From Candidatus Eiseniibacteriota bacterium (GTDB lineage: Bacteria > Eisenbacteria > RBG-16-71-46 > CAVPCR01): a stretch of 64,000 nt of DNA. The stretch spans positions 474,688-538,687 of the forward strand of contig CAVPCR010000005.1 in NCBI GenBank assembly GCA_963702435.1, given 5' to 3'. The notes beneath the pieces are model-generated. The model had not been told where the DNA came from, did no database searches, and saw nothing but the letters and a program-made list of their open reading frames with translations. Below are positions 1,998 through 33,723 of this stretch, piece after piece. The translations under genes and the position numbers were made by a program. The first letter of the stretch is position 1; the number at the start of each line of letters is the position of its first letter.

Positions 1998-4877
1998 ATG
2001 AACGGGCGCGTGCCGCTTTCACCCGGCGACCGGCTCGTCTATCATGCCCACGAGATGAGCAACGGCGCCGATCGCACATCGCTCTCCGCGCCCGCCGGCG
2101 ATGCGCTCAACCCGGCGGCGGAGGCCGTACATTACAGCCGCCAGGTCGAGGAGATCTGCAGAGCCCTGGCCACGCAGCTCGACCGCGGGCTCCCGGCTGC
2201 GGAGGCCGCGCGCCGCCTTCTCGAGCACGGCGAGAATCGTCTCCCCGAGCCGGCCCGCGTCTCGGCGCTCCGCCTCCTCGCCAAGCAGTTCACCGACTTC
2301 ATGGTGCTCATCCTGATCGGCGCAACGTTGCTCTCGCTCGCCATGCGCGACTTCGTCGACGCCGCCGTCATCGGCGTCGTCGTCCTCGTCAACGCCGCGA
2401 TCGGCTTCATCCAGGAATACAAGGCCGAGCGCACGCTCGCCTCGCTCCGGGACATGGCCGGACCCGAGGCCCGCGTGCGCCGCGACGGGCAGGTGGACCT
2501 GATACCCGCGACCGCTCTCGTGCCGGGCGACGTCGTGTTCCTCGATGAAGGAAACCAGGTGCCGGCCGACATCCGGCTGGCCGAGGTGGTCGGGCTCGAG
2601 ATCGAGGAGTCGGTGCTGACCGGCGAGTCCCTCCCGGTCGAAAAGGGCGTACAGGTCATCTTGAGCAAGCGGGTGCCGCTCGGCGATCGGCGCAACATGG
2701 CCTTCATGGGCACGGTCGTCACCGCCGGCCGCGGCCTGGGGATCGTGGTCGCCACGGGTCGGGCGACCCAGATCGGCCGCATCGCCGACGCGCTCGCCGT
2801 GCCGCTCGAGAAGCCGACGCCGCTCCAGCAGAAGCTCGCCGCCCTCGGCCGCCTCCTCGTGGTCCTGAGCATCGCTCTCTGCGCCCTGATCGCGGCGATC
2901 GGGATCGCGCAGGGACGGGCCATGGGCGAGGTCATCATGACCGCGGTGAGCCTGGCGGTCGCCGTCATTCCCGAAGGCCTCGTCGCCGTCGTCACCATCA
3001 CCATGGCCGTCGGCGTGCAGCGGATGGCCCGCCGCGGCGCCATCGTGCGCCACCTGCCCGCGGTCGAGACGCTCGGCTCGGTGACCACCATCTGTTCGGA
3101 CAAGACCGGGACGCTCACCGAGGGACGCATGTCGGCGACCGATCTGTGGGTGGCCGAGCGCGCGATCTCCGTGACCGGGACCGGCTATCGGCCGCAGGGT
3201 GAGTTCCAGATCGACGGCCGGCCGCTCGCCGAACGCGGCCCCGCCCTCGAGCTCGCGCTCCTGACCGCCGCCCTCTGCAACAACGCCGTGCTGCAGGAGG
3301 ATCCGACCGCCGGCTGGGAAGCGGTGGGGGACACGACCGAGGCCGCGCTCCAGGTGCTCGCCTGGAAGGCGGGGATGGGCAAGCCGCAGCTCGCGGCAAC
3401 GCACGAGTTCCTGACCGAGCTTCCCTTCGACAGCCAGCGCCGGCGGATGAGCGTGATCTACGCGGCGCCGGATGAACGCGTGCTCGTGCTGACCAAGGGC
3501 GCGCCCGAGTCGATCCTCGCCGTCTGTGCAGACTGGCAGCTCGACGATCGGCGCGTGCCGCTCGACGCCGCGGCGCGCCGCCGGATCGATCGCGGCGAAC
3601 AGCGACGCTGGCCGGGCGCGGACTGCGGGTGCTCGGTCTCGCCTGGCGCACGATCGGCGAGTACGATCTCGATCTGGAACCCGAGGATGCCGAGCGGGAG
3701 ATGTCCTTCATCGGACTCGTGGGGCTGAGCGATCCGCCGCGCCCGGAGGCGGCGGCCTCGGTGGCGAGCGCTGCACGCGGCCGGCATCCGGGTCCACATG
3801 ATCACCGGGGACCATCGCGCCACCGCGGCCGCCATCGCCGCCGAGACCGGGATCCTGCCGTCCGCGCCGGAAGCAGCCGACATCGCCGCGGACATCGCCG
3901 GGGCGGGCGCCGTCATCGCCAACGAGCAGCTCGATGCGATGTCCGAGGAATCGCTCGCCGAACTCGCCGTCTTTCCTGCCGTCTTCGCCCGGGTGAGCCC
4001 CGAGAACAAGCTCAAGATCGTGCACGCGCTGAGGAGGCAGGGCCAGATCGTGGCGATGACCGGCGACGGGGTCAACGATGCGCCGGCGATCAAGTACGCC
4101 AATGTCGGCGTCGCCATGGGACGCACCGGCAGCGACGTGACGAAACAGGCTGCAGATCTGATCCTGACCGATGACAACTTCGCGACGATCGTCACCGCGG
4201 TCGAGGAAGGGCGGCGCATCCTCGACAACATCCAGAAGTTCATCATCTATCTGCTTTCGTGCAACATGGCCGAGATCCTGCTCATGCTGCTGACGATGGT
4301 CGCCGGCCTGCCGCTCCCACTCACCGCGATCCAGATCCTCTGGCTCAACCTGGTGACCGACACGCCGCCGGCCCTCGCGCTCGGCGTCGATCCGCCCGAG
4401 CGCGACATCATGCGCCGGCCGCCCCGCCCGCCGCGCGCGAGCCTGTTCCCCGCGCCGGCGATCGTGAGCGTCCTCTATCACGGTCTCGCCATGAGTCTCA
4501 TCACGCTCGGCATTTTCCTGAGCGACGCCGGCGGGACCGAGCACGACATGGCCCGGGCGCGCACCGAGGCCTTCGCCACGCTCGCCATGCTCCAGCTCGT
4601 GCATGCCTTCAATGCGCGCCACGCGACGCGCTCGATCCTGCGCACGGGCCTCGCCTCGAACCGGTGGCTCCTCGCCGGCGTGGCCCTCTCGACCGCGCTC
4701 CTCCTCCTCGGGATCTACGAGCCGTTCCTGAATCGCGTCTTCGGGCAGGAGGAGCTCACCGCCGCGAGCTGGCTCAAGGTGGCGGCCGGCCTCGCCGTCT
4801 TCATGATGCTGGCCGAGGCGTTCAAGCTGGCACGACGGCGCGTACTCGAGCGAGACGACGAAGCCCCGTCCGCATGA
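1998..4877 (+). pseudogene. Cation-transporting P-type ATPase (type II, Ca/Mg-like) interrupted by a compensated frameshift segment
   Basis: Motifs present: ICSDKTGTLT, MITGDH, TGDGVNDAPA and C-terminal TM helices. The reading frame leaves frame 0 near 3594-3608. The conserved block GLRVLGLAWR...FIGLVGLSDPPRPEA is read in another frame (ORF 3629..). Frame 0 resumes near 3767 (ALHAAGIRVHMITGDH). The start is ATG 1998 or ATG 2055 (MSNGADR...). Confidence 0.85.
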
Positions 4878-4896: not shown

Positions 4897-5364
4897 ATGG
4901 CCATCGCGGAGATCCTGAATGAGGAATCGATCCTCCTCGATCTCGACGTGAACGAGAAGGCCGCCGTGCTCGCGGCGCTCGTCGCCCGCGCCGCGGCGGG
5001 CGGTCGCCTCGCGGCGCCGGATGAGACCTCGCGCATCCTCGCCGAGCGCGAGGCGCGGCAGAGCACCCTCGTGATCCCCGGCCTGGCTCTCCCGCACGCG
5101 CGCGTCCCCGGACTCGACCGCAGTCTCTGCGTTTGGGCCCGCCTCGCCCATCCCATATCGTGGGACGAGGAGACGGGCGCCCGCGCGCAGTTCGTCGTCC
5201 TCCTCCTCTCCCCGGTCGCCGATCAGGGCGAGCACTTGCGACTTCTCGCCGCCCTCGCGCGGCTGCTCAAGGACCCGCGCACCTGGGAGTCGCTCGGGAC
5301 CGCGACGTCGCCCGCCGGTCTCCTGGCGACCGTGCGCCGCTTCGAGTCGGCCCGCGTCCTCTAG
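4897..5364 (+). CDS. PTS EIIA type-2 domain protein (PtsN / EIIA-Ntr-like)
   Basis: 155 aa with a GAGGAGG Shine-Dalgarno sequence 7 nt upstream. The N-terminus ILNEESILLDLD and the phospho-His context GLALPHARV are typical of the PTS_EIIA_2 fold. It starts 20 nt after the ATPase stop. Confidence 0.8.
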   Translation: MAIAEILNEESILLDLDVNEKAAVLAALVARAAAGGRLAAPDETSRILAEREARQSTLVIPGLALPHARVPGLDRSLCVWARLAHPISWDEETGARAQFVVLLLSPVADQGEHLRLLAALARLLKDPRTWESLGTATSPAGLLATVRRFESARVL

Positions 5365-5462
5365 TCGGTCGGGGCGGGCCCGGGAACGAAGACGCGGGCG
5401 AGGTCGACTCCGGCGCCGGAACGCCGGATCGATCCCCGCCCGCGAAGGGTGGGCGGAGCGGA

Positions 5463-5597
5463 CTAGCGGACCTGGACCTCGATCTCGGGGGCGGCCGCTG
5501 CGGGATCGAAGGCCACTTGCACCTCCGCACATGCGAAGGCCAGACCGGCGCTCAGGATGAGAGCGAGCACGGCCAGGACATACGTGCGTATGGTCAA
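5463..5597 (-). CDS. Small (44 aa) putative secreted/lipoprotein-like peptide
   Basis: TTG start preceded by GAGGAGGA at 7-nt spacing. It encodes (M)TIRTYVLAVLALILSAGLAFAC-AEVQVAFDPAAAAPEIEVQVR, a hydrophobic signal-like segment ending in Cys. It sits in an otherwise empty intergenic region. The rest of the 637-aa ORF 5463..7376 is an antisense artefact. Confidence 0.35.
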   Translation of the reverse strand: MTIRTYVLAVLALILSAGLAFACAEVQVAFDPAAAAPEIEVQVR

Positions 5598-5822
5598 AGC
5601 GGTTATCCTCCTCAGCCTGTCAGGTCGGGGATCCCCGCGCCGGGGCGGGACGGAAGGAGCAGCAGGCGGCCATCTTGCAAATGATAGGATAGCACGCCGA
5701 TGCGCCTTGGACCCGCCTATGTTCTGAACAGGAGAGCCGGCGCCGACTACCGGCCCGAACCCTGCTGCGCGTCGGAGTAGTGACCGGATGGTTTTCCTGG
5801 GCCCTCTGGAGAGACCCGCATC

Positions 5823-6545
5823 ATGACCGCCGAGTCCCGTCTCTACTTCCGCCAGCTCCTGTGCGGCCGCGAGGTCGCGCCCCGCGACCCGATCGCGGCA
5901 CAGATGCTCAACTTCGTCTATCTGATCGGGGACCGAGAGAAAGGCGAATGCCTGGCCGTCGACCCGGCCTGGGACGTGGACGGCCTCCTCGCCGTGGCGG
6001 AGGCCGACGGCATGCGCGTGACCGGAGCGCTCGCCACGCACTATCACCCCGATCACGTGGGCGGGGACATGTTCGGACACTCGATCGCCGGGCTCGCCCG
6101 TCTCGTCGAGCTGGCCCCCGTGCGCGCGCACGCGCACAAGAACGAGGTCGCCGGCATCCGCCAGGTGACCGGCCTCGGCGCCAGCGACATCGTGCCGCAC
6201 GAGGGCGGCGACGTGATCCAGATTGGGGACGTGGCGATCGAGCTCGTGCACACGCCGGGACACACGCCCGGGAGCCAGTGCTTCCTCGTCGGCGGGCGGC
6301 TCGTCGCCGGGGACACGCTCTTCGTCCAGGGCTGCGGGCGCGTCGATCTTCCGGGCGGGGATCCCGACGAGATGTATCGCACGCTCACCCAGCGCCTCGC
6401 CCGGCTGCCGGAGACGACCGTCCTCTATCCGGGCCACGACTACGGCCCCACCCCCACGTCCACGCTCGCCGACGAGCGGCGAGCGAACGCCTACCTGCGC
6501 GTGCGCTCGCTCGAGGACTGGCGGCGCTTCATGGGCGACTCCTAG
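5823..6545 (+). CDS. MBL-fold metallo-hydrolase (glyoxalase II / persulfide dioxygenase-like)
   Basis: 240 aa with an HYHPDHVGG (HxHxDH) metal motif, a later HTPGHTPG and a GDTLF block. Confidence 0.85.
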   Translation: MTAESRLYFRQLLCGREVAPRDPIAAQMLNFVYLIGDREKGECLAVDPAWDVDGLLAVAEADGMRVTGALATHYHPDHVGGDMFGHSIAGLARLVELAPVRAHAHKNEVAGIRQVTGLGASDIVPHEGGDVIQIGDVAIELVHTPGHTPGSQCFLVGGRLVAGDTLFVQGCGRVDLPGGDPDEMYRTLTQRLARLPETTVLYPGHDYGPTPTSTLADERRANAYLRVRSLEDWRRFMGDS

Positions 6546-6560
6546 GAAGGAGCGCAGCCG

Positions 6561-6998
6561 ATGCTCAAGATCCTCTTCCTGTGTACAGGAAACTCCTGCC
6601 GGAGCCAGATGGCGGAGGGCTTCGCCCGCCATCTGCGCGGAGCCGAGATCGATGCGTACTCGGCCGGCACCGCCCCGCACGGGCTCGACCCGCGCGCGGT
6701 CCGGGTCATGGCCGAGGCCGGCATCGACATCGCGGCACAGCGCTCGAAACACGTGGCCGAGCTCGCGAAGATCGCCTTCGACTGGGTCGTCACGGTGTGC
6801 GGGCATGCCGACGAGCAATGCCCGACCTTTCCCGGCTCGACCCGCATCGTGCACGCCGGCTTCGACGACCCGCCGGCGCTCGCCCGCGCCGCAGCGAGCG
6901 AGGAGGAGGCGCTCGCCTCCTACCGGCGGGTGCGCGAGGAGATCCGCGCCTTCATCGAGACCCTGCCGGGATCGCTGGCGTCCCGTTCCTACCGGTAG
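6561..6998 (+). CDS. arsC: Arsenate reductase, LMW-PTPase (thioredoxin-coupled) type
   Basis: MLKILFLCTGNSCRSQMAEG P-loop (CX5R) plus downstream Cys pair CGHADEQCP, as in the Bacillus/Staphylococcus-type ArsC family. Confidence 0.8.
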   Translation: MLKILFLCTGNSCRSQMAEGFARHLRGAEIDAYSAGTAPHGLDPRAVRVMAEAGIDIAAQRSKHVAELAKIAFDWVVTVCGHADEQCPTFPGSTRIVHAGFDDPPALARAAASEEEALASYRRVREEIRAFIETLPGSLASRSYR

Positions 6999-9919
6999 GC
7001 GAAGATCACCGCGTAGATGATCAGCCCGACCAGCGAGCAGGCCGATCGCAGAGCGCGGTGAACCCGAAGATCCGCCAGCTGCGCACGGTCTTCGGGTCGA
7101 GCGGCGGATCGACGAGGTGGCTCTCGAGCGTGCCCGCTGGCCACCAGCTCCGCGTACTCGCGCGGCCGGTCGATCTTGAACTCCTCGAGCGGCACGCGGC
7201 CGGTGAAGATGACCGGGTCCATGGGGAACTTCTCCGGGCGGAAGTGCGTGTTGAAGAAGTGGATGGTGAAGATGAAGCCGACCGCGAGCAGCGCCTCGTC
7301 GCTGTGGATGATGGTGGCCACGTTGAGCAGCCGAGCCCGGCAGGAAGCGGGTGAAGAACTCGGGGAACCAGAGCATGAGCCCGGTCGACGCCGATCATCG
7401 CCACGCCCCAGAAGACCGCGAAGTAGTCGAACTTCTCCCAGTAGGTCCAGCGGCCGTAGTCGGGCCGCGGGCCCCGGCCGAGGAACCACTTGAGCGAGCC
7501 GACGAACTCCCTGCAGGTCGGTCGAGGTTCGGCAGCATGCTGTTCGGGCCGAGCGACGAGCTTCTTCATGCCGCCCGCCTCGCACGCGCTTGCGCCGCAG
7601 CAGGTCCCAGATGTGGAGCCCGAAGTAGGCGAAGGTGATGACCGCGCAGACGCGGTGGATGAAGCCGGCGGTCTCGAAGCCGCCGAAGAGCCGCGCCAGG
7701 ACGCTGCGCCCAGCCGGTGTAGGAGAACTTGAGCGTCATCCCGGTCAGCGCCAGCCCGAGGAAGCTCACGATCACCATCAGGTGGAGCTTGCGTGTAGAA
7801 CGGCGTGAACCGGCGCACGTACGTCTGGCCGGGGCGCTGCGCGTCGGCCTGCTTGAGCTGCCGGCGGTACTGCAGCGAGCGCGGGAGCCAGGCGAGCGTG
7901 TGCAGCCCCGCGAAGGTGAAGCGTCCCGACCAGGAGCCCCGTCATCCCCCAGAAGGTGTAGAAGAGGACCGGGTACTTGCTTCGGGTCGTGGTGCGTGGC
8001 GTGGGTCAGGTAGCCGGCGAAGCGCCGGTTCGAGCCGGGGTGGCACTGCGCGCAGGTCTTCACGATGTTGCTCGCGGCTCAGGTGCGACTTCGGGTTCCA
8101 CGTCGGCAGGATGTCGTGCGCGCCGTGGCAGTCGTAGCACTTGGCGGTCTTCACGTAGCCGAGCTTCGAGACCTTGCCGTGGTAGGTGTCGAAGTAGCTC
8201 TCGGTGATCTCCTCGTGGCAGTCGCCGCACTGCGTCATGATCGTGAGCTTGAAGTCGGTCGCGGTCGGTGCGCTTGATCTCGTGCGCCGAGTGGCAGTCG
8301 CTGCAGTCGGGCAGCTTCTCCTTCGTCTTGGAGACCGCCGGCGAGTGGATGCTGCTCGTCGAACAGCTCGTAGATCCCGCGGTGGCACTGGGCGCAGGTC
8401 TTGGCGACGTTCGCCCGGTTGACGGTCGAGGCCGGATCGCTCGCCGGCAGCTCGCCGTGGGCCGTGTGGCAGTTGGCGCAGGTGGCGGTGACGGTCAGCC
8501 CGCTCTCGAGCAGCCCCTTGCCGTGGATCGACTCGGTGTAGTCTCGACCATCCCGGTCTCGGTGCCCGTGTAGCGGACGCGCCGCCTTCTCTCCCTTGCG
8601 GTGGCACTGGCCGCAGAGGGTCGGGATGTTGCGCGGCGAAGGTCGGCGACTCGGTGTCGCGCCTTGCCCGAGGACGCCGTGGGTGCCGTGGCAGTCCTTG
8701 CAGACCGGGGCGTCGGGGCTGCCCGTCGGCGGCGAGCTTGCCGTGGGTGCTGTCCGGTACTGCTCCACCACCTCGGCGTGGCAGATCGAGCAGTCCACCT
8801 CTCGGCGCACGGTCGCGCAGGGGCGCTCCAGCGACGGCGAGCACTCGGTGTGGCACTGGACGCAGGCCATCCGGGCGTGGCGCGAGTGCGGCCAGCTCGT
8901 CCGCGTCGACGTGGAGCTCGGCGCTCTGGCCATCCCGGCGGTCGACTTGAGGTCGGTCGCGGGCGTGGCAGCTCATGCAGTCCCGGTCGGCCATGCCCTG
9001 CGTGTAGAACACCTTGCGCACCTTGTGCGGCGAGTGGCAGTCGACGCAGGCCGGGATCATGTGGGGCTGCTTCTCCCACAGCTCGCCGCGGATCACCTTG
9101 CGGTGCACGCGCTCGATCTGGGCGTGGCACTTGGTGCAGGTCTTGGCGACCTGTCCGTGCGCGATCGAGGAGCGCGGATCGGTGTGCGGCAGCACGTGGT
9201 GCGCGGTGTGGCAGCTCGTGCAGACCGCGGTGACGATCAGCCCCTTCTTGAACAGCCCCTCGCCGTGGATCGACTCCGAGTAGTTCTCGAGGATGCTGTC
9301 CTGCGGGATCGAGTGCGTGAGCTGGACCGGCGAGCCTTCGCGGTGGCAGCGTGCCGCAGAGGAGCGGGATGTTCATGACGGCGGTCTGGGCGAGCGGGGT
9401 CGGACGGGCGGCGCACGATCGTGCGTCGCCGTGGCAGCTCTTGCAGGTGGGGGCGAGCGGATCGCCGCGCTGCCCGGCCTGACCGTGCAGGCTCTCGTCG
9501 TACTGGGTCTGGATCTCGTCGTGGCAGGTGCCGCAGTCGACCGGCGCGAGCTTCTCCGGGTGCGGCATCTCGACGCCGGCGAGGTCCATGTGGCAGTCGG
9601 TGCAGGCCACCCCCGCATGCGGCGAGGCGAGGAGCGCCGCGGCATCGAACTTGGGCGGCTCGCCGGGGACGCGCCGCCCCTGGCGTCCGGCCACGTGGCA
9701 ATCGACGCAGCCCTCGGCGCCCGGCGGCAAGGCCGCGCTCGGCGTCTGCGCGACGGCCGCGGCGGGACCCACCGCGAGGCGGCCCGTCGAGCCGCGGAGA
9801 TCGGAGATCGAGGGGCCCGCGACCAGAACCGCCACGAGGACAGCAATCCCCGCGGCCGGGAGGATCCAGAACCGCGACCACCCGCGGCTGCGCTTCACAT
9901 CAACCTCGGCGTGTCGCAT
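6989..9919 (-). pseudogene. ~970-aa multiheme cytochrome c (about 19 CXXCH) fused to a cytochrome-b-like membrane domain; broken by at least ~20 frame changes
   Basis: Start MRHAEVDVKRSRGWSRFWILPAAGIAVLV (ATG 9919, SD GAGGTGG). The protein can only be followed by hopping between ORFs 8495..10141, 7942..9195, 8235..8933, 7566..8063, 7021..7818, 6989..7585 and the N-terminus of 5463..7376. One switch is exact: an extra base at 9349 splits a heme motif (tgc ggc acg C tgc cac = CGT-CH). The C-terminal part (..FVGSLKWFLGRGPRPDYGRWTYWEKFDYFAVFWGVAMIG.., ..LLNVATIIHSDEALLAVGFIFTIHFFNTHFRPEKFPMDP..) parallels the b-domain of the intact paralog 9900-11978. Confidence 0.8.
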
Positions 9920-11978
9920 CCTGTTCCACCTCTCGTACCGCCGTGCCGCCCACCCCCGGGTGGTTGCCGCCGTGGCCGTCGCTCGTCGCGCTCCCGGCGC
10001 CGCCGGCAGCGGCCCGGTGCTGATCGTGCTCGGCGGCCCGGTGCTCCCCGTGCCCGCCGTGTCCGCCGTGCCCGCCGTGCTCGGCATGCCCTCCCGCGTG
10101 CACCTTGCCGTAGAGCATCGCGGTGTCGAGCGGATAGACATCGGGATCGAAGATCACCGTGTAGAAGTGCCAGACGAGGATGGCGAGCGAGGCCAGCACC
10201 GCCTCGTAGTAGTGGATGTAGGTCGCCAGATCGGGCATCCAGGCCGGCAGGTTGGCGAGCGTCCAGTTCTTGAAGACGAGGAGCAGGCCGGTGAGCGTCA
10301 TCACCACGCTGCCCCAGACCAGCGCCCAGTACTCGGCCTTCGCCACGTAGCTGAACCCGTGCGGCTCGGGCGCGTGCATCGACGGCACCTTGCCGGTGAA
10401 GAACCCGAGCGCGTGCCCGACGTCCTGGATGCGGAAGGCGAGCCCGACGATGAGCCGCCGCCCCCGCGGCTTCAAGATCACTCGCACCGTGTGCTCGATG
10501 CTGAGGACGACGAAGATGATGGCGAAGAAGCGGTGGAAGTTGCCGCGGAAGGTCTCACCGCCGAGCCACTGGAAAGGCGCCGCCCACCACTCCTTGGGCC
10601 ACTTGATCGCGAAGCCGGAGTAGGCGAGCGCGATGAAGGAGACGAGCAGGAAGACGTGCTCCAGCCGCTCGACCGAGACCCAGCGCTCGTAGCGCCGCGT
10701 CACGCGTTCGCGGGCCAGGTGCCGGCGAAGCTTGCGGAAGAAGTCGAGCGCATGATGGAGGAGCATGCCGCCGATGATGACCGGGATCGCGATCTGGTAG
10801 AAGAGCACGACCCACTGGATGATCGGCACCGACTCCGCCGGGCCGCCGTGCACGGTGAAACCACTGAAGGTGGCTTCCGAGACTCCCGGATGGCACTGGC
10901 CGCAGGTCGTGGGCAGGTTCGCGGTGTTGACCATCGAGCGCGGATCGCTCGAGGGCAGGATGTCGTGCACGCCGTGGCAGCTCGCGCAGTTGGCGACCGT
11001 CGTCTGTCCCGCCTCGGCGGCCAGCCCGTGGTAGCTCTGGCTGTAGCTCTCGACCCGGTTGCCCGGGATCCCGAGCTTCGAGGTGAGCCGCTCGGTGGCA
11101 TGACACCGCGCACAGGTCTCGCTCGAGATCGCCGTCGCGAAGACCGAGGACTTGGGATCGGCGGGGCCGAGGATCGTGTGCTCGCCGTGGCAGTCGGTGC
11201 AGGTGGCTGACTCATCGATCCCGCGGGCGAGCGCCACACCGTGGATGCTCTGGTTGTACGCGGCAGCGATATCACCGTGGCACTTGCTGCAGGTGGCGGC
11301 GATGTTCATGCGGTTGGTCGGCGACTGCGGATTGAGGGGCTTCGAGATGTGGTGCGCCCCATGGCAATCGCTGCAGCTCGCCGCATCGAGATTCCCGCGC
11401 TCGAGGATCGCCCGGCCGTGCACGGTATGCGCATAGCCGGTGCTCGGCATGCTCATGGCGACATCGGGCGGAGTCGCGCTCTCGTGGCAGGTGGCGCACT
11501 GCTTGGGCATGTTCTTCTTGTGCATGAGCGAGCGCTCGTCGCTCGCCGGCAGGAGCGAGTGCACCTCGCCGTGGCACATGGTGCAGGAGAGCGCGCCGGG
11601 TCGCTCCCCGCCATGTCCGTGGTCGCTCGCCCGCACCTCCTTGTCCGCGTCCTCGTGACAGGTCGCGCAGCTCACGACCGGGAGGTCGGGATCGTGCTCG
11701 ACGCCGACCCCCGCATGGCAGTCGACGCAGCTGAACCCGCCGTGCGCCGAGCCGGCAAAGACCGCCGGATCGACCGAGATCGAGATCTCCTGGCCGGCGG
11801 CATTGGTCCCGGTGAGTCCCTCGCTGCCGTGGCAGGCCAGGCAGTCCTCGCTCGTCGGCTGCGCGACCGCGGCGCCGGCGGCGAGGGCCAGGGCGGCGAG
11901 CAACGCGGCCAGCAGGACGGCGCCAGGCGCCGCCCGCCGCCGCGACCCGTTTCCGCTCTTCTCGATCATGCTTCCCAT
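9900..11978 (-). CDS. 11-heme cytochrome c fused to a 5-TM diheme cytochrome-b-like (HydC/FdnI-type) domain; CbcL-like architecture; His-rich C-terminal tail
   Basis: ATG 11978 (MGSMIEK) with an AAGGAG SD, and a signal/anchor LLAALLAALALAAGAAVA. There are 11 CXXCH motifs (CLACH, CVDCH, CATCH, CTMCH, CATCH, CSDCH, CSKCH, CTDCH, CARCH, CASCH, CGQCH). These are followed by 5 hydrophobic helices carrying conserved His (LLHHAL, LEHVF, FHRFF, IEHTV, YIHYYE). The tail is HAGGHAEHGGHGGHGGHGEH. Confidence 0.85.
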   Translation of the reverse strand: MGSMIEKSGNGSRRRAAPGAVLLAALLAALALAAGAAVAQPTSEDCLACHGSEGLTGTNAAGQEISISVDPAVFAGSAHGGFSCVDCHAGVGVEHDPDLPVVSCATCHEDADKEVRASDHGHGGERPGALSCTMCHGEVHSLLPASDERSLMHKKNMPKQCATCHESATPPDVAMSMPSTGYAHTVHGRAILERGNLDAASCSDCHGAHHISKPLNPQSPTNRMNIAATCSKCHGDIAAAYNQSIHGVALARGIDESATCTDCHGEHTILGPADPKSSVFATAISSETCARCHATERLTSKLGIPGNRVESYSQSYHGLAAEAGQTTVANCASCHGVHDILPSSDPRSMVNTANLPTTCGQCHPGVSEATFSGFTVHGGPAESVPIIQWVVLFYQIAIPVIIGGMLLHHALDFFRKLRRHLARERVTRRYERWVSVERLEHVFLLVSFIALAYSGFAIKWPKEWWAAPFQWLGGETFRGNFHRFFAIIFVVLSIEHTVRVILKPRGRRLIVGLAFRIQDVGHALGFFTGKVPSMHAPEPHGFSYVAKAEYWALVWGSVVMTLTGLLLVFKNWTLANLPAWMPDLATYIHYYEAVLASLAILVWHFYTVIFDPDVYPLDTAMLYGKVHAGGHAEHGGHGGHGGHGEHRAAEHDQHRAAAGGAGSATSDGHGGNHPGVGGTAVREVEQDATRRG

Positions 11979-12003
11979 GTCCGCTACTCCTTGCGCGAGG
12001 GGC

Positions 12004-13446
12004 TCACTCGGCATAGAGCCGGCTCACGATCTCCGGGTTGACTTCCTCGATCGCCAGGAGATGGTGGCAGTTCGTGCACTCCTGGCTGATGGTCTTGCCG
12101 TCCGAGCTCACGTGCTGCTCGTCGTGACAGCGGAAGCAACCCGGGGCGCTCTCGTGACCGATGTGGTTCGGATAGGTTCCCCAGGTGACCTTCATTTCGG
12201 GGAACACGTTCCGCCCGTAGATGGTCTTGATCGACTCGACGGCCCGCTCCACCTGGGCGGGGTTCTGTCCCGGCTCCGAGTCACGGTAGAAGGCCCGGAT
12301 CTCGGTGTCGATGGTGGCGAAAGCGGTCTTGCGGTCCGGATACTCGGTCGACAGCACGCGCTCCGCCTCGCGGCGGATGAACGGCAGGTTGCGCGGAATG
12401 GTGCCCAGCCAAATGGCGTCGTTGATGGCCTTGGCCAGCGGCTCGAAGGCGTGGGTCGGCCGGTTGTGGCAGTCCATGCAGTCGAGGGAACGCCGTTCGA
12501 CCCCGGGGCGGGCCTTGGGATCGAAGTCGAGCCCCTCCTTGAGATACTCGGTCGTGTTGCCGGCCGGGTCGGTGACGCCGACCCAGTACATCTCGGTGCG
12601 CGTCGAATCGGCGATGTACTCGATCCGGTTGGCGATGTTCATGTGCCAGTGGATGCCCTCGGCAAAGCCCGACTCGAGGCTGCCGCCGCCGACCTTCAGG
12701 AGCAGCATGGTCGTGAGCTCGGTGTTCTCCCGGTCGCTCGCGAAGCTCTTCTTCACCTTGACGCGATCGCCGTGGAACTTGGCCGGCCAGTGGCACTGCT
12801 CGCAGGTCTCGCGCGCGGGGCGCAGGTTGTGCACCGGATTCGGCAGCGGCCGGTGGTACGTATCGAGCGTCACCGCCACCACCTGGCGGAGTCCGGAGAG
12901 CTTCGACTTGACGAACCACCCGGCGCCCGGACCGATGTGGCAGTCCACGCACTCGACGCGGGCGTGCGGCGACGCCTCATAGGCGGTGTACTCGGGGATC
13001 ATCACCTTGTGGCAGACGAGCCCGCAGAACTCGCTCGAGTCCATGTAGTGCACCGCCTGGAACCCGGCCACGCCCAGGATCATGAGGCTGAGCGCGCTCA
13101 TGATGAGGACGGCGTTCAGCCGCCGCCGGTGATCGGGGCGGTTCAGATCGATGATGGCGAAGGGGGCCCTGCCCTGGGCCTCCTTCTGCCGCATGTAGAG
13201 GCGCCGGCCGATGATGATGAGGATGATGCCGAAGACGAAGAGCCCAGGCAGCACCAGGTAGGCCAGGATGCCGATGTACGGGTTGGTCTCGACGCCGATC
13301 AGCTCGACCACGAGGAAGAACAGGAAGAGGACCACCGAGAACATGACCAGGTTCGCCCCGAGGAGCCCCACCGGGTGGCGCGAGGCGTGGCTCATCAGGT
13401 CGCGGATGCTCCCGATCGCGGTCTTCACCGGTCTGAGCGGACTCAT
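12004..13446 (-). CDS. Membrane-anchored 6-heme NapC/NirT-like cytochrome c (ImcH-like architecture)
   Basis: 480 aa with three N-terminal hydrophobic helices, then CGLVCH directly after the last helix (the NapC/NirT hallmark). Further motifs are CVDCH, CEQCH, CMDCH, CFRCH and CTNCH. Confidence 0.8.
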   Translation of the reverse strand: MSPLRPVKTAIGSIRDLMSHASRHPVGLLGANLVMFSVVLFLFFLVVELIGVETNPYIGILAYLVLPGLFVFGIILIIIGRRLYMRQKEAQGRAPFAIIDLNRPDHRRRLNAVLIMSALSLMILGVAGFQAVHYMDSSEFCGLVCHKVMIPEYTAYEASPHARVECVDCHIGPGAGWFVKSKLSGLRQVVAVTLDTYHRPLPNPVHNLRPARETCEQCHWPAKFHGDRVKVKKSFASDRENTELTTMLLLKVGGGSLESGFAEGIHWHMNIANRIEYIADSTRTEMYWVGVTDPAGNTTEYLKEGLDFDPKARPGVERRSLDCMDCHNRPTHAFEPLAKAINDAIWLGTIPRNLPFIRREAERVLSTEYPDRKTAFATIDTEIRAFYRDSEPGQNPAQVERAVESIKTIYGRNVFPEMKVTWGTYPNHIGHESAPGCFRCHDEQHVSSDGKTISQECTNCHHLLAIEEVNPEIVSRLYAE

Positions 13447-13635: not shown

Positions 13636-15300
13636 TCAATCACGCAGGATGTACGCCCGGCGTGGCATCTTCCCCGGATTCAGCGCCAGCGTGCTCTGCT
13701 GGAGAAGCTGGATCGCGTAGGTCGTGTTGTGCACGCCGTGCGATCCGTCGTATTCGACGAAGAAGTAATTGTATCCCGCCTCGCGCTGATCGCGGGTCGT
13801 GATGTTGGTATCCCCGACCGCGACCGAGAATTCCTCGGCGGTGACCAGGGCCAGGCTGTCCTCAGGGCTCGCGCTGGCGTCGATGATCGCCGTCTTGAGG
13901 ATCCCGAGGAGGCCGTGGATCTCGTCCTGCACGCCCTGGATCTGGCCGCTTCCGTCGAAGTCCTCCTTGGCCAGGATCTGGTCGAAGTCGGTGATCGCGC
14001 CGTGACACTCGGCGCACGCCTCGACGGTCGGGAGGAAGCCGTGTCCGGTGTAGACCACGTCCCCCTCGTGTCCGTGCGTGTGGCAGTGCACGCAGCCCTC
14101 GCGCACCGCGAGGTGCCGGCTCGAGGTCCACGGGAACCCCGGCATGAGACCCTCGTAGGCGCCGGTACCGGCGAGCATGTCGCCCTGATTCGAGTGATGC
14201 GGACCGAAGTGCTCGCTGCCGTTCGCGAGCTGGCCCTCGATGCTGGTCGGCGTCCGCCGGCCGTTGTGGCAGGCCATGCAGAGCCGGCCGGCGCCCGCCT
14301 CCGGTACCACGCTCCCGTCAGGGAGGACGACGTCGGTGGCCGCGGCGTTGCGCAGGTTGGCGAGGTTGTCGTTCCCGTGCGGGTCGTGGCACACGGCGCA
14401 GGTGATGGCCAGCGTGTCCTCGACCGCAGGCGGGTTCACGAAGCCGCCGGGGTTGTCCAGATACGTGCCGGCGTAGACGCCGTTGTGGCACTTGGCGCAG
14501 CCGGCGCTCTCCGCCGCCTCCACGATCACGCTGTTGTGCGGCGACGAACCCCACTCGTCGAAGGTCGGATGGTGCGGCCCGTTGTGGCAGGAACCGCACA
14601 ACCCGGCCGCCGTCACCACGTCCACCGAGCCGGGATCGGGGTTCGGATGCGAGCTCCCCGGACCGTGGCAGTTCTCGCATTGCACGCCGTAGAGGCGGGC
14701 GACTGCCATCTCGTCGTACCCGCCGTTGTTGAGCGCCGGATCGGCATTGACCGCCTTCGCGCCGACGGTGTGGCAGGGTAAGCAGACGTTGTTCCGCCCG
14801 TTGCCGATCGCATTCAGGGTCTCCCAGGCCCCCTGATGCCCCGTCTGCTCCCACGCATCGTACACATCGTCATGGCAGCCGTTGCAGTAGCTCGCCCCGC
14901 GATAGTACGGGCTGGCCGCCGGCACATAGGTGTCGACCCCGAGCGTCCTGGTCCCGACTCCCGCGTCCTGGTTGTTCGTCACGGTGCAAGCGATGTCGTA
15001 GAGCCCCGAGGCCTCGGGCGCCGTCCACTGGGTGGTGTCATTCGACGTGGTCGCGAACGAGCCCCCGCTCGCCGCCCAGCTGTAGGTCAAGGGCGCCGTG
15101 GACCCGCTCTCGACGTCGGCCTTGGCCACGAGCGTGACCGTGCCCCCACCCGCCACCGAATCGGCCGTTGAGGAGACCGTGACCGTGATCGCCGGTGCCG
15201 GCACCACGATCTCGTCATCGCCCTCGCAGCCGCCCAGCAGGGCCATGGCCGCAAGCGCGGCCAGCGCGAGATGAATGAATGGACGAACCGATCGCATCAT
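13636..15300 (-). CDS. 9-heme cytochrome c lipoprotein with an N-terminal Ig-like (PKD/Big-like) domain
   Basis: Signal plus lipobox MMRSVRPFIHLALAALAAMALLGGC. A ~100-aa beta-rich domain follows (TVTVSSTADSVAGGGTVTLVAKA...YDIACTVTNNQ). There are 9 CXXCH motifs (CNGCH, CLPCH, CENCH, CGSCH, CAKCH, CAVCH, CMACH, CVHCH, CAECH). SD GGAGGGAGG precedes the ATG. Confidence 0.85.
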   Translation of the reverse strand: MMRSVRPFIHLALAALAAMALLGGCEGDDEIVVPAPAITVTVSSTADSVAGGGTVTLVAKADVESGSTAPLTYSWAASGGSFATTSNDTTQWTAPEASGLYDIACTVTNNQDAGVGTRTLGVDTYVPAASPYYRGASYCNGCHDDVYDAWEQTGHQGAWETLNAIGNGRNNVCLPCHTVGAKAVNADPALNNGGYDEMAVARLYGVQCENCHGPGSSHPNPDPGSVDVVTAAGLCGSCHNGPHHPTFDEWGSSPHNSVIVEAAESAGCAKCHNGVYAGTYLDNPGGFVNPPAVEDTLAITCAVCHDPHGNDNLANLRNAAATDVVLPDGSVVPEAGAGRLCMACHNGRRTPTSIEGQLANGSEHFGPHHSNQGDMLAGTGAYEGLMPGFPWTSSRHLAVREGCVHCHTHGHEGDVVYTGHGFLPTVEACAECHGAITDFDQILAKEDFDGSGQIQGVQDEIHGLLGILKTAIIDASASPEDSLALVTAEEFSVAVGDTNITTRDQREAGYNYFFVEYDGSHGVHNTTYAIQLLQQSTLALNPGKMPRRAYILRD

Positions 15301-28434: not shown

Positions 28435-30671
28435 CTAGGGCGCGGTCTCCGCGCCCTCGGCCCCGGCGACCGGCCGGTAGGCCACGCCCAGCTCGGTGAC
28501 GAGAAAGGCGTAGGCGTCGGCCTCCTCCGCGTTCCGGCTTGCGAGCGGTGTGCCGATCCCATGCCCCGTGTGGGCGTCCGTCCGGAGGAGAACGGGTCGG
28601 CCGGAGCTCGTCGCCGCCTTGAGCCGCGCGGTCATCTTCCGCGAGTGCATGGGATCGACCCGCGGGTCGTTGGCCCCGGTCATGAACAGGACCGCCGGAT
28701 AGGGCGTGCCCTCCCGCACGTGGTGGTACGGCGAATAGGCGGAGAGCGCCATGAACTGCTCCCGGTCCTTCACCGTTCCGAACTCGGTCGTGTTGAACTC
28801 GCCATTCGGGGTCTCCTCGGCCCGGAGCATGTCGTAGACCCCCACCCGGGACACGACGGCGCGGCAGAGATCCGGGTGCTGGACGAGGGTCGCGCCCATC
28901 AACGTCCCGCCGTTCGAGGCGCCGGCGGCAGCCAGCCGCTCCCGCGACGTGTAGCGATTCGCGATCAAGTACTCGGCGCACGCGGCGAAATCGTCGAACA
29001 CGTTCTGCTTCCGCGTCAGGTTCCCCGCGTGATGCCACGAGCGGCCGAATTCTCCCCGCCGCGCAGGTTGGCCACGGCGTAGATCCCGCCCTGCTCGAGC
29101 CACAGGCGGCGGGTCGCATCGAAGCCCGGCTTCTCGGCGATGCCGTAGCCGCCATAGCCATAGAGGATCGCCGGCGCCGTGCCGTCGACCGGGGTGCCCT
29201 TGCGGAGAAGAATGTTGATGGGAATGCGGGTGCCGTCCTTCGACAGCGCGAACTCGCGGCGGACCTCGACATCGCTGAAGTCCGCGGGGGAGCGCATGAG
29301 GAGCCGCGTCGGGACGACCTTCCAGGTCGCGGGATCGAAGCGATACCAGCCGCCGGGCTCCACGTAGCTCTCGCGCTCGAAGAGAAGATCGTCGACGGCG
29401 AGCGGCACGAGCCGGCGGACCGCGGCATGGACCGGCAAGGGAACGAACCCGAGCTGCGTCCCCGCGTGATCGAAGACGCGGAGCCGCGAGGGTCCGCCCG
29501 CCTGGTCGAGCACGTAGAGGCGGGTGGCCGCCACCGCGAAGTCCTCGATCGCAACATCGCTTCCCGGCACGGCGATCTCGGCCCGCGCCAGATCCGGCGC
29601 GCCGAGCGGCAGGCGCAGGATCTTCCCGTTCGGCGTACCCTGATAGGACAGGAGGTAGAGGCTCCGATCGAGGCCGGCCCCGAGGCGGGCGCGCAAGCAT
29701 TCATCGCCGAAGGTGGTCAGCTGTCGCCAGGCCCCGGTGTCCGGGTCGAGGAGCCAGAACGCGTGCTCGCCGCCGTCGCCGTTCAGCACGTCGGCGAGTA
29801 TCTCGCGACCGCCGTCCCGCGTCGTGAGCAGGATCTCGGCGATGCGCGGGAACTCGCGTCCGAGCACATGAGCTGTCGTCCCCGGCCGCGGTGCCGAGCC
29901 GATGATGGAAGATCTGCTGGTGGAAGCAATGCGCGTCCGGCGAATGCGGATCCGGATCGGGATAGCGCGTGTGATAGAAGCCCTGTCCGTCCGCCGTCCA
30001 GGCCACCGCCCCGCCCGCCGTCCCGCCGTGACGCGCGGCACCGAGTCGGGAAGACGCTGTCCGCCGACCGTCTCGAACACGGAGACCGTGCCGTCCTCGG
30101 TCCCGCCGGTCGACAGCGAGACGGCAACCAGGGATCCGTCCGGTGACGGCTCGAAGAAATCGATCGACGTGTCGCCGCTCGGATCGAGGACGTTCGGATC
30201 GACGAGGACGCGCTCGCTCGCCGGATCGGTCAGGGAATCGAAGACGATGAGGAATGGCTGTTGCTTCGGCGGCTCATCCTTGAGCGCGAAGAACCGCGCG
30301 CCGCGGCGGACCAGACCGAAGTAGCTCGGTGCGAGGTGCCGCGTGAGCGCGTCGAGCCGGGCGAGGATGGCGGGGCGCGCCGGCACCCGGTCGAAATAGG
30401 CGCGCGCGCGGGCGTTCTCGGCATCGCTCCAGGCCTGAACGCGAGGATCGCTCCCGTCCTCGAGCCATTGATAGTCGTCAGCGACGGTGACCCCGTGGTA
30501 GGTGGTGGTCACAGGCTGCTTCATGGTCGTGGCCTCCGTGGCGCGCGCGGTGTCGCGGCCGGCGGTGAAGGCGAGGGCGGTGATGGCGAGGGCGGTGATC
30601 AAGAGGATGATCGGCAGAGCGAGAATCGCCCCGGGCATGAAGGCGGCTCCAGGCGAGCACGGTCGGCGCAT
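28435..30671 (-). pseudogene. Prolyl oligopeptidase family (S9A) serine peptidase with three frameshifts
   Basis: Signal MRRPCSPGAAFMPGAILALPIILLITALAITALA. N-terminus YHGVTVADDYQWLED, beta-propeller region, and catalytic part GGEFGRSWHHAGNLTRKQNVFDDF...GASNGGTLMGA...DPRV...HGIG. Frame changes occur near 30028 and 29872 (the out-of-frame block AVAWTADGQGFYHTRYPDPDPHS... is read by ORF 29701..30006). A third is at the C4 run 29054-29057, where RGGGEFG requires five C. Confidence 0.8.
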
Positions 30672-33341: not shown

Positions 33342-33713
33342 ATGAGCGCGGATCCGCTGACGAGCCCGACCCGACCGGTCGACATCGCCCAGATCGGGCG
33401 GGCCGCGCTGCGCGTGAGCTGGGCCGATGGACATGCGAGCGAGTTTCCGCTGCCGCTCCTCCGGCGGAACTGCCGCTGCGCCGCCTGCCGGGACGCGGAA
33501 CAGACGCCGGCGAGCGCGAGCCCATTCCGGGTGCTCGGGCCCGAGCCGGCGACCGCCCCGGCCGCGCTCGAGCAGGTCGGCAACTACGGCCTCGGCGTGC
33601 ACTGGGCCGACGGTCACTACTCGATCTATGCGTTCGACGCGCTGCGCAACGACTGCCCGTGCCCGCAGTGCCGGCACGGAGCGGCGGCACAGCGCAGCGC
33701 GACCTCATCCTGA
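33342..33713 (+). CDS. DUF971 domain protein (gamma-butyrobetaine hydroxylase N-terminal-like, zinc-binding)
   Basis: Duplicated W.DGH.S.(F/Y) motifs (VSWADGHASEF, VHWADGHYSIY) with Cys pairs CRCAAC and CPCPQC. Confidence 0.7.
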   Translation: MSADPLTSPTRPVDIAQIGRAALRVSWADGHASEFPLPLLRRNCRCAACRDAEQTPASASPFRVLGPEPATAPAALEQVGNYGLGVHWADGHYSIYAFDALRNDCPCPQCRHGAAAQRSATSS

Positions 33714-33723
33714 TCCTCCCGCG

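Follow-up and report, generated by a model that had tools for sequence, protein, structure and literature searches.

The closest described counterpart of the protein considered here is CbcL (GSU0274) of Geobacter sulfurreducens, an inner-membrane bc-type cytochrome that serves as a menaquinol oxidase in extracellular electron transfer (PMC6295460). We have analyzed a 64,000-nucleotide (nt) stretch of DNA from a Candidatus Eiseniibacteriota bacterium (assembly GCA_963702435.1, contig CAVPCR010000005.1, positions 474,688 to 538,687 of the forward strand; the whole stretch is hereafter the window), in which a gene at 6989-9919, on the minus strand, specifies a cytochrome of the same general design. 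CbcL joins an N-terminal periplasmic multiheme c domain to a b-type membrane domain of the HydC/FdnI kind at the C-terminus (PMC6295460); the window protein has the same layout, with a probable b-type domain, and its gene adjoins other multiheme cytochromes and a NapC/NirT-type protein. The two differ in that CbcL has nine heme motifs (PMC6295460), whereas the window protein has 19 CxxCH motifs, and in that the host belongs to another phylum, Candidatus Eisenbacteria; moreover, no CbcL-specific model matches the window protein, and its b-domain match lies below the Pfam cut-off. This gene can be read only by changing frame more than two dozen times. We consider, with a probability of about 0.9, that the frame changes are local consensus errors of a long-read metagenome assembly and do not exist in the DNA of the organism. 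This conclusion is favored by the presence of the same signature in the essential rpoC gene, by the existence of about 40 such patches genome-wide, and by an independent contig that lacks the three frameshifts it covers.

Residual indel errors and locally mis-polished or chimeric tracts in long-read metagenome-assembled genomes provide a second term of comparison. As in those cases, the bin is contiguous, its completeness estimate is depressed (85%), conserved and essential genes are split, and the shifts are not common to orthologues and, at the few sites open to comparison, are missing from an independent contig. In contrast, the errors described here are concentrated in ~40 patches rather than evenly spread, are insertion-biased and mostly outside homopolymers instead of being mainly homopolymer deletions, and go together with substitutions relative to an independent contig. 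Only Nanopore data entered the Microflora Danica long-read catalogue, which was built with Flye (--meta --nano-hq), one round of Medaka and no short-read polishing (PMC12313526); a check of coding density is reported there, and the portions of the paper used here describe no such patches (PMC12313526). The only same-genus genome (MFD09779.bin.1.77, hereafter G001) is one of these Nanopore-only Flye/Medaka bins, and the window genome, a highly contiguous metagenome bin of 6 contigs, was therefore probably produced in the same way.

Three-frame translation of the minus strand (9960..6960) revealed no single open frame across 6989-9919, where clean coding stretches hop from frame to frame. Stitching 28 correct-frame segments yields a protein of 971 amino acids (aa) that is free of stop codons, contains 19 CxxCH motifs and ends in a domain of several helices. 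The frame changes were positioned with our own protein-to-DNA aligner, which allows frameshifts and was run with the three closest orthologues as queries. The gene contains 26-29 frame changes, of which the aligner places ~26, between 9427 and 7034; 22-24 of these ~26 events are single extra bases (+1) and two (~8752 and ~8541) are single-base losses. The features of the locus are as follows.

6989-9919, minus strand: cytochrome gene, predicted to encode a ~971-aa inner-membrane bc-type cytochrome, readable across 26-29 frame changes only
9431-9919, minus strand: clean 5' part of the cytochrome gene, ~490 nt, with the start codon, the transmembrane segment and hemes 1-4; no frame change
7008-9430, no strand assigned: error-dense patch of ~2.4 kb containing all frame changes, at ~1.1 per 100 nt, nearly all +1
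~9424, 9417, 9383, 9350, 8952, 8926, 8886, 8752, 8724 and 8668, minus strand: frame changes, first part, from frameshift-aware alignment
~8631, 8576, 8541, 8357, 8260, 8070, 7976, 7915, 7788 and 7700, minus strand: frame changes, second part, from the same alignment
~7582, 7551, 7526, 7510, 7386, 7325, 7132, 7047 and 7034, minus strand: frame changes, third part, from the same alignment

An earlier note, made from the letters of the window alone, had described a protein readable end to end only by frame switching, with its motifs kept and no in-frame stops. Both the three-frame translation and the frameshift-aware alignment agree with that description, and all 22 switch points listed in the note were recovered within ~25 nt, most of them within 10, with a few further ones added. 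One detail has to be revised. The note had placed an extra base exactly at 9349, splitting CGT-CH; since the orthologues, including that of G001, read C-G-R-C-H at this point, the extra base more likely lies a few nucleotides upstream, in the Gly codon.

The low-coordinate edge of the patch (7008) is the point at which an independent contig, discussed below, ceases to match the window. At its other end, the patch stops short of the start of the gene. At the patch rate, ~5 events would be expected in the first ~490 nt, and the Poisson probability of finding none is ~0.005 (our own calculation); the damage thus affects a tract of DNA whose edge falls within the gene, and not the gene as a unit. 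A second genomic copy of the locus was considered as a cause of failed polishing and rejected, since a search of the genome found just short, weak matches to paralogues. The adjacent paralogue was also set aside as a guide for calling frames, being too distant (~30% identity), and true orthologues were used instead.

These orthologues came from a six-frame search of 40 related genomes, from which eleven full-length sequences were fetched. All eleven are single open frames of 944-1011 aa with 19 CxxCH motifs each, and the stitched protein matches them over the full length with 52-75% identity (E = 0), so that it cannot be a product of chance. G001 is syntenic with the window, at 75-81% nucleotide identity, and this identity shows no step at the patch borders along the locus. 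Its orthologue (L017, G001:C4:299,366-302,200) itself contains six frameshifts, all +1, while the neighboring genes there have none. None of the six is demonstrably at a window site, although two fall within a few codons of window events. The rpoC gene of G001 (G001:C3:549,093-551,126) is also split, again with +1 frameshifts. Error patches seem to recur in the same conserved genes (the cytochrome gene and rpoC) of two independent bins, the window genome and G001. As a separate observation, many homologues of this ~980-aa protein appear in ENA/NCBI records as pieces 170-400 aa long, from contigs of 0.1-1 Mb. This hints that the gene is perhaps split by frameshifts in other long-read assemblies too, with the reservation that the length filter favored fragments.

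The signature is not confined to the cytochrome gene. Codon log-odds were derived from 1,215 long open reading frames (ORFs) of the genome, and a 7-state Viterbi decoding (three frames per strand plus non-coding) was applied to all six contigs (4.98 Mb). With a switch penalty of 20 this hidden Markov model (HMM) called the cytochrome locus non-coding; with the penalty lowered to 8 it recovered most of the shifts of the locus. Counting as a cluster any run of five or more frame switches on one strand with gaps below 400 nt, we found 40 clusters, distributed over all six contigs and amounting to ~60 kb. Inside the clusters, +1 switches outnumber -1 switches by 349 to 147, versus 799 to 1032 outside; some of the more balanced clusters may be noise. 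The genes affected include those for ClpC, NuoL/M/N, an RND pump, MacB-like permeases, a sugar ABC transporter locus, acyl-CoA dehydratase activators and rpoB/rpoC. The implication of the earlier note that the damaged gene is singular finds no support; the gene is one island among ~40 patches in this assembly.

One of these patches, the largest in the assembly, takes in the whole ribosomal-protein/rpoBC/str region at C4:710-733 kb. The rpoC gene, present at a single locus, lies there in at least seven pieces, whereas it is one frame of ~1,100-1,456 aa in seven relatives; aligned with an orthologue, it displays 58 frameshift events in 3.9 kb, 42 of which are +1. An essential single-copy rpoC cannot truly be so broken, and the frameshift signature is therefore a property of the assembly. 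The patch at C4:710,000-733,000 is a likely reason for the 85% completeness estimate. Another cluster called by the codon-usage HMM is listed here.

C5:167,772-172,677: one HMM cluster of frame switches, called from codon usage

One of the HMM clusters was suspected to be a ribosomal RNA operon, an explanation discarded because the operon lies elsewhere, at C3:~414-419 kb. In the window itself, the codon HMM also shows paired or isolated same-strand switches at 3600-3765, 29049-30021 and 33690-33720, which are probably consensus errors of the same kind.

Independent evidence came from Logan contigs of run ERR11561443, located by exact-protein look-up of the neighboring genes. The contig L104 (1,945 nt) shows no difference from the window over 5278-7007 (1,730 nt). 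Differences set in at 7008, 19 nt into the cytochrome gene from its 3' end, and number 30 in ~220 nt. The contig covers only these last ~220 nt of the gene and lacks the extra bases near 7037, 7049 and 7137, that is, all three frameshifts within its reach. It has an open C-terminus of 77 aa, identical at 66 of 76 positions to the stitched reading of the window. A second contig (L105) matches the bin without any difference along 1,914 nt that lie outside a patch. A third (L106) is identical over ~1,084 nt and then differs at 177 positions in ~720 nt (C3:238812-239529), a divergent stretch that lies mostly inside the HMM patch C3:238338-239301; the contig keeps an intact ORF of 250 aa where the bin needs four frameshifts. 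In both informative patches, the bin is faithful outside and departs inside by substitutions as well as indels, the substitution divergence from the Logan contig being ~11% in the cytochrome patch and ~25% in the C3 patch, with identical flanks. The change is abrupt in each case: at window 7008 and at C3:239529/239530, a single position separates 1-1.9 kb without any difference from sequence that is 11-25% divergent. Such a switch would be explained either by two haplotypes that share identical flanks, through recombination, or by one of the two assemblies being chimeric at this point. Near-identical fragments of the patch were also sought in a collection of 5.8 billion proteins, with the heme region, the b domain and the C-terminus as queries; there were none, the best match having 83% identity, and this collection thus holds no independent copy of the patch haplotype.

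The inserted bases have characteristics of their own, seen in the cytochrome patch (7034-9427) and in rpoC (C4:719,456-723,338). Insertions are mostly outside homopolymers and at or next to third codon positions; among the resolved insertions, 6 of 45 are at codon position 2 alone, versus 15 expected. Many insertion sites are C/G pairs at which dropping either base leaves a synonymous codon. We found neither a common slippery motif nor a homopolymer at the frameshift sites. A '...GCAAG' context recurs at several of the rpoC insertion sites. The usual Nanopore errors are changes in homopolymer length with an excess of deletions. Non-homopolymer insertions near third positions therefore point to mixed haplotypes or mis-polishing as the cause, rather than to plain homopolymer error. 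One hypothesis is that an insertion represents both alleles of a synonymous single-nucleotide polymorphism written side by side, which would fit the codon-position bias; at least one site that could be compared with L104 does not agree with this idea.

We propose the following scheme. Most of the assembly would be accurate, with a poor consensus in ~40 tracts of 0.5-5 kb and in one of ~20 kb, where ~1-1.5 single-base indels per 100 nt, mostly insertions, would have been left; the window tract at ~7008-9430 would be one of these, located by chance inside the cytochrome gene. In such tracts, we infer, coverage was low or mixed, and reads from a divergent minor haplotype or from a related population either determined the path of the contig or were used to polish it. 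Reads of foreign or minor-haplotype origin would be favored in conserved genes, and their read-level indels would never have been averaged out. The indel density of ~1-1.5% is comparable to raw long-read error, conserved genes are over-represented in the patches, and both same-genus bins are damaged in both of the genes checked.

Several points weigh against this scheme. The verdict was reached from assembled sequences and not from reads, and the long-read origin of the window genome is itself a probable one, deduced from its relative and from the assembly statistics. The contig L104 reaches just 3 of the ~26 events, and along that stretch it carries ~11% substitutions, so that it could derive from a co-occurring strain. 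The signature is unusual for Nanopore data, with its excess of insertions, mostly non-homopolymer and near third codon positions. Finally, both same-genus bins are damaged in the same gene while its immediate neighbors are clean, which would call for a systematic cause, one that can only be deduced indirectly.

Among the alternatives, a true and very recent pseudogene survives best, although we regard it as improbable. One strain would bear ~26 small indels, acquired for example once selection had lapsed or through a burst of mutation confined to the locus, and the assembly would be faithful. The indels do stand in the deposited consensus, and the patch and the independent contig represent different haplotypes, so that a divergent strain exists. 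The frameshifts of G001, in this gene and not in its neighbors, could be read in the same sense, but with no G001 indel demonstrably at a window site (two within a few codons) nothing suggests common inheritance. The selection data are unfavorable to a pseudogene. After removal of the codons beside the shifts, the ratio of non-synonymous to synonymous substitution rates (dN/dS) between the window gene and G001 is 0.21; this falls within the range of five intact neighbors (0.12-0.31), and on this comparison the coding sequence is under ordinary purifying selection. Relaxed selection, the mark of a true pseudogene, was thus not detected, with 19 of 19 CxxCH motifs retained and not one stop codon, and the view of the earlier note that this is no old pseudogene is borne out. 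In addition, 26 indels without a nonsense or motif-destroying substitution correspond to no known mutational outcome, the first 490 nt of the gene are clean, the damage setting in only after them, and the identical dense, +1-biased signature is found in single-copy rpoC, in rpoB and in ribosomal-protein operons, which cannot be pseudogenes. The locus does resemble the frameshift pseudogenes of host-restricted or recently niche-shifted bacteria in having several frameshifts where the orthologues are intact. It differs from them in the lack of relaxed selection, stops or motif loss, in a damaged tract that ignores gene borders, and in the damage to rpoB/rpoC. The earlier note had left the choice between an artefact and a recent, massive pseudogene open; the artefact is now strongly favored, by rpoC, by the ~40 patches and by L104.

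Very improbable is the wider proposition that the extra bases are truly in the DNA of a living strain, whether through a local burst of insertions or because dozens of +1 sites, those of rpoB/rpoC included, are tolerated or bypassed. A milder version is likelier: the population would hold two alleles of the cytochrome gene, ~11% apart between identical flanks as a result of allelic replacement by recombination, and the frameshifts would be errors on the minor allele.

The chance is slighter still that the artefact arose by another route, namely that the bin's own genome was very thinly covered in the patches or that the polisher skipped them, with chimeric Logan contigs accounting for the divergence. 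The indel density resembles raw long-read error here as well, and the Logan contigs end in or at patches, which is a sign of graph complexity; however, low coverage of the same genome alone would not suffice to produce 11-25% substitutions that set in abruptly beside 1-1.9 kb of zero differences, nor does this route sit well with the enrichment of patches in conserved genes. Finally, that the extra bases are real but bypassed, through programmed +1 ribosomal frameshifting, transcriptional slippage or RNA editing that would restore a full-length protein, is hardly credible despite the near-uniform +1 direction and the perfectly kept coding potential of every segment, because the sites are not conserved (11 of 11 orthologues are in a single frame, and the six shifts of G001 are not demonstrably at the same sites), share no slippery motif or homopolymer, and are absent from the independent contig at the three positions it covers; to our knowledge, more than 25 recoding events in one gene, or 58 in rpoC, would be unprecedented in bacteria.

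Read as a consensus artefact, the locus most likely contains, judging from its sequence, an intact and functional CbcL-like 19-heme/cytochrome-b quinol oxidoreductase within a cluster of four multiheme cytochrome genes. Its product would have, from N- to C-terminus, a signal or transmembrane segment, a periplasmic domain bearing the 19 CxxCH heme-c motifs, and a membrane domain of the cytochrome-b (b561/FdnI-like) type. Pfam searches with the stitched protein returned matches to Cytochrome_C7, Cytochrom_c3_2 and Paired_CXXCH_1, together with Ni_hydr_CYTB (PF01292) at 26.9 bits, under the cut-off of 30.1. NCBIfam matches were all sub-threshold, to decaheme families and to the formate dehydrogenase gamma subunit (TIGR01583, 35.7 bits versus a cut-off of 115.85); 'cytochrome b subunit of formate dehydrogenase' is the label carried by many homologues in the databases. 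The neighboring genes are the following.

9900-12014, minus strand: upstream paralogue, intact, 704 aa, with 11 CxxCH motifs and a cytochrome-b domain (PF01292 at 35.8 bits, above the cut-off)
12004-13446, minus strand: NapC/NirT/NrfH-like membrane-anchored multiheme cytochrome, intact, 480 aa
13636-15300, minus strand: periplasmic or outer multiheme cytochrome, intact, 554 aa, matching MtrC/MtrF-domain and c554-like models
5823-6545, plus strand: metallo-beta-lactamase-fold protein, intact, convergent to the cytochrome gene and letter-identical to L104
6561-6998, plus strand: low-molecular-weight phosphatase/ArsC-like protein, intact, convergent to the cytochrome gene and letter-identical to L104

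The three upstream ORFs (9900-12014, 12004-13446 and 13636-15300) are colinear with G001 without any frameshift, and the remark of the earlier note that the adjacent paralogue and the next two cytochrome genes are intact thus holds. The 3' end of the paralogue, with its stop, shares 20 nt with the 5' end of the damaged gene. The C-terminal tail of the paralogue (window 9900-10112; HAGGHAEHGGHGGHGGHGEH...) is rich in histidine. From the architecture of the protein and its gene neighborhood, a role in quinol-linked electron transfer to periplasmic or extracellular acceptors is likely.

The value of these observations is mainly one of quality control. The ~40 error-dense patches represent ~1% of the length of this representative genome; they break conserved genes, lower the completeness estimate and would yield false pseudogenes in annotation or pangenome work. 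The same interpretation should be applied to frameshift islands reported elsewhere in this genome. The odd signature of the patches may also be of use to the builders of polishing and strain-aware assembly tools. As for the cytochrome, its family is widespread but unstudied and numbers thousands of proteins from soil and sediment metagenomes; the member in the window is probably an intact 19-heme CbcL-like protein.

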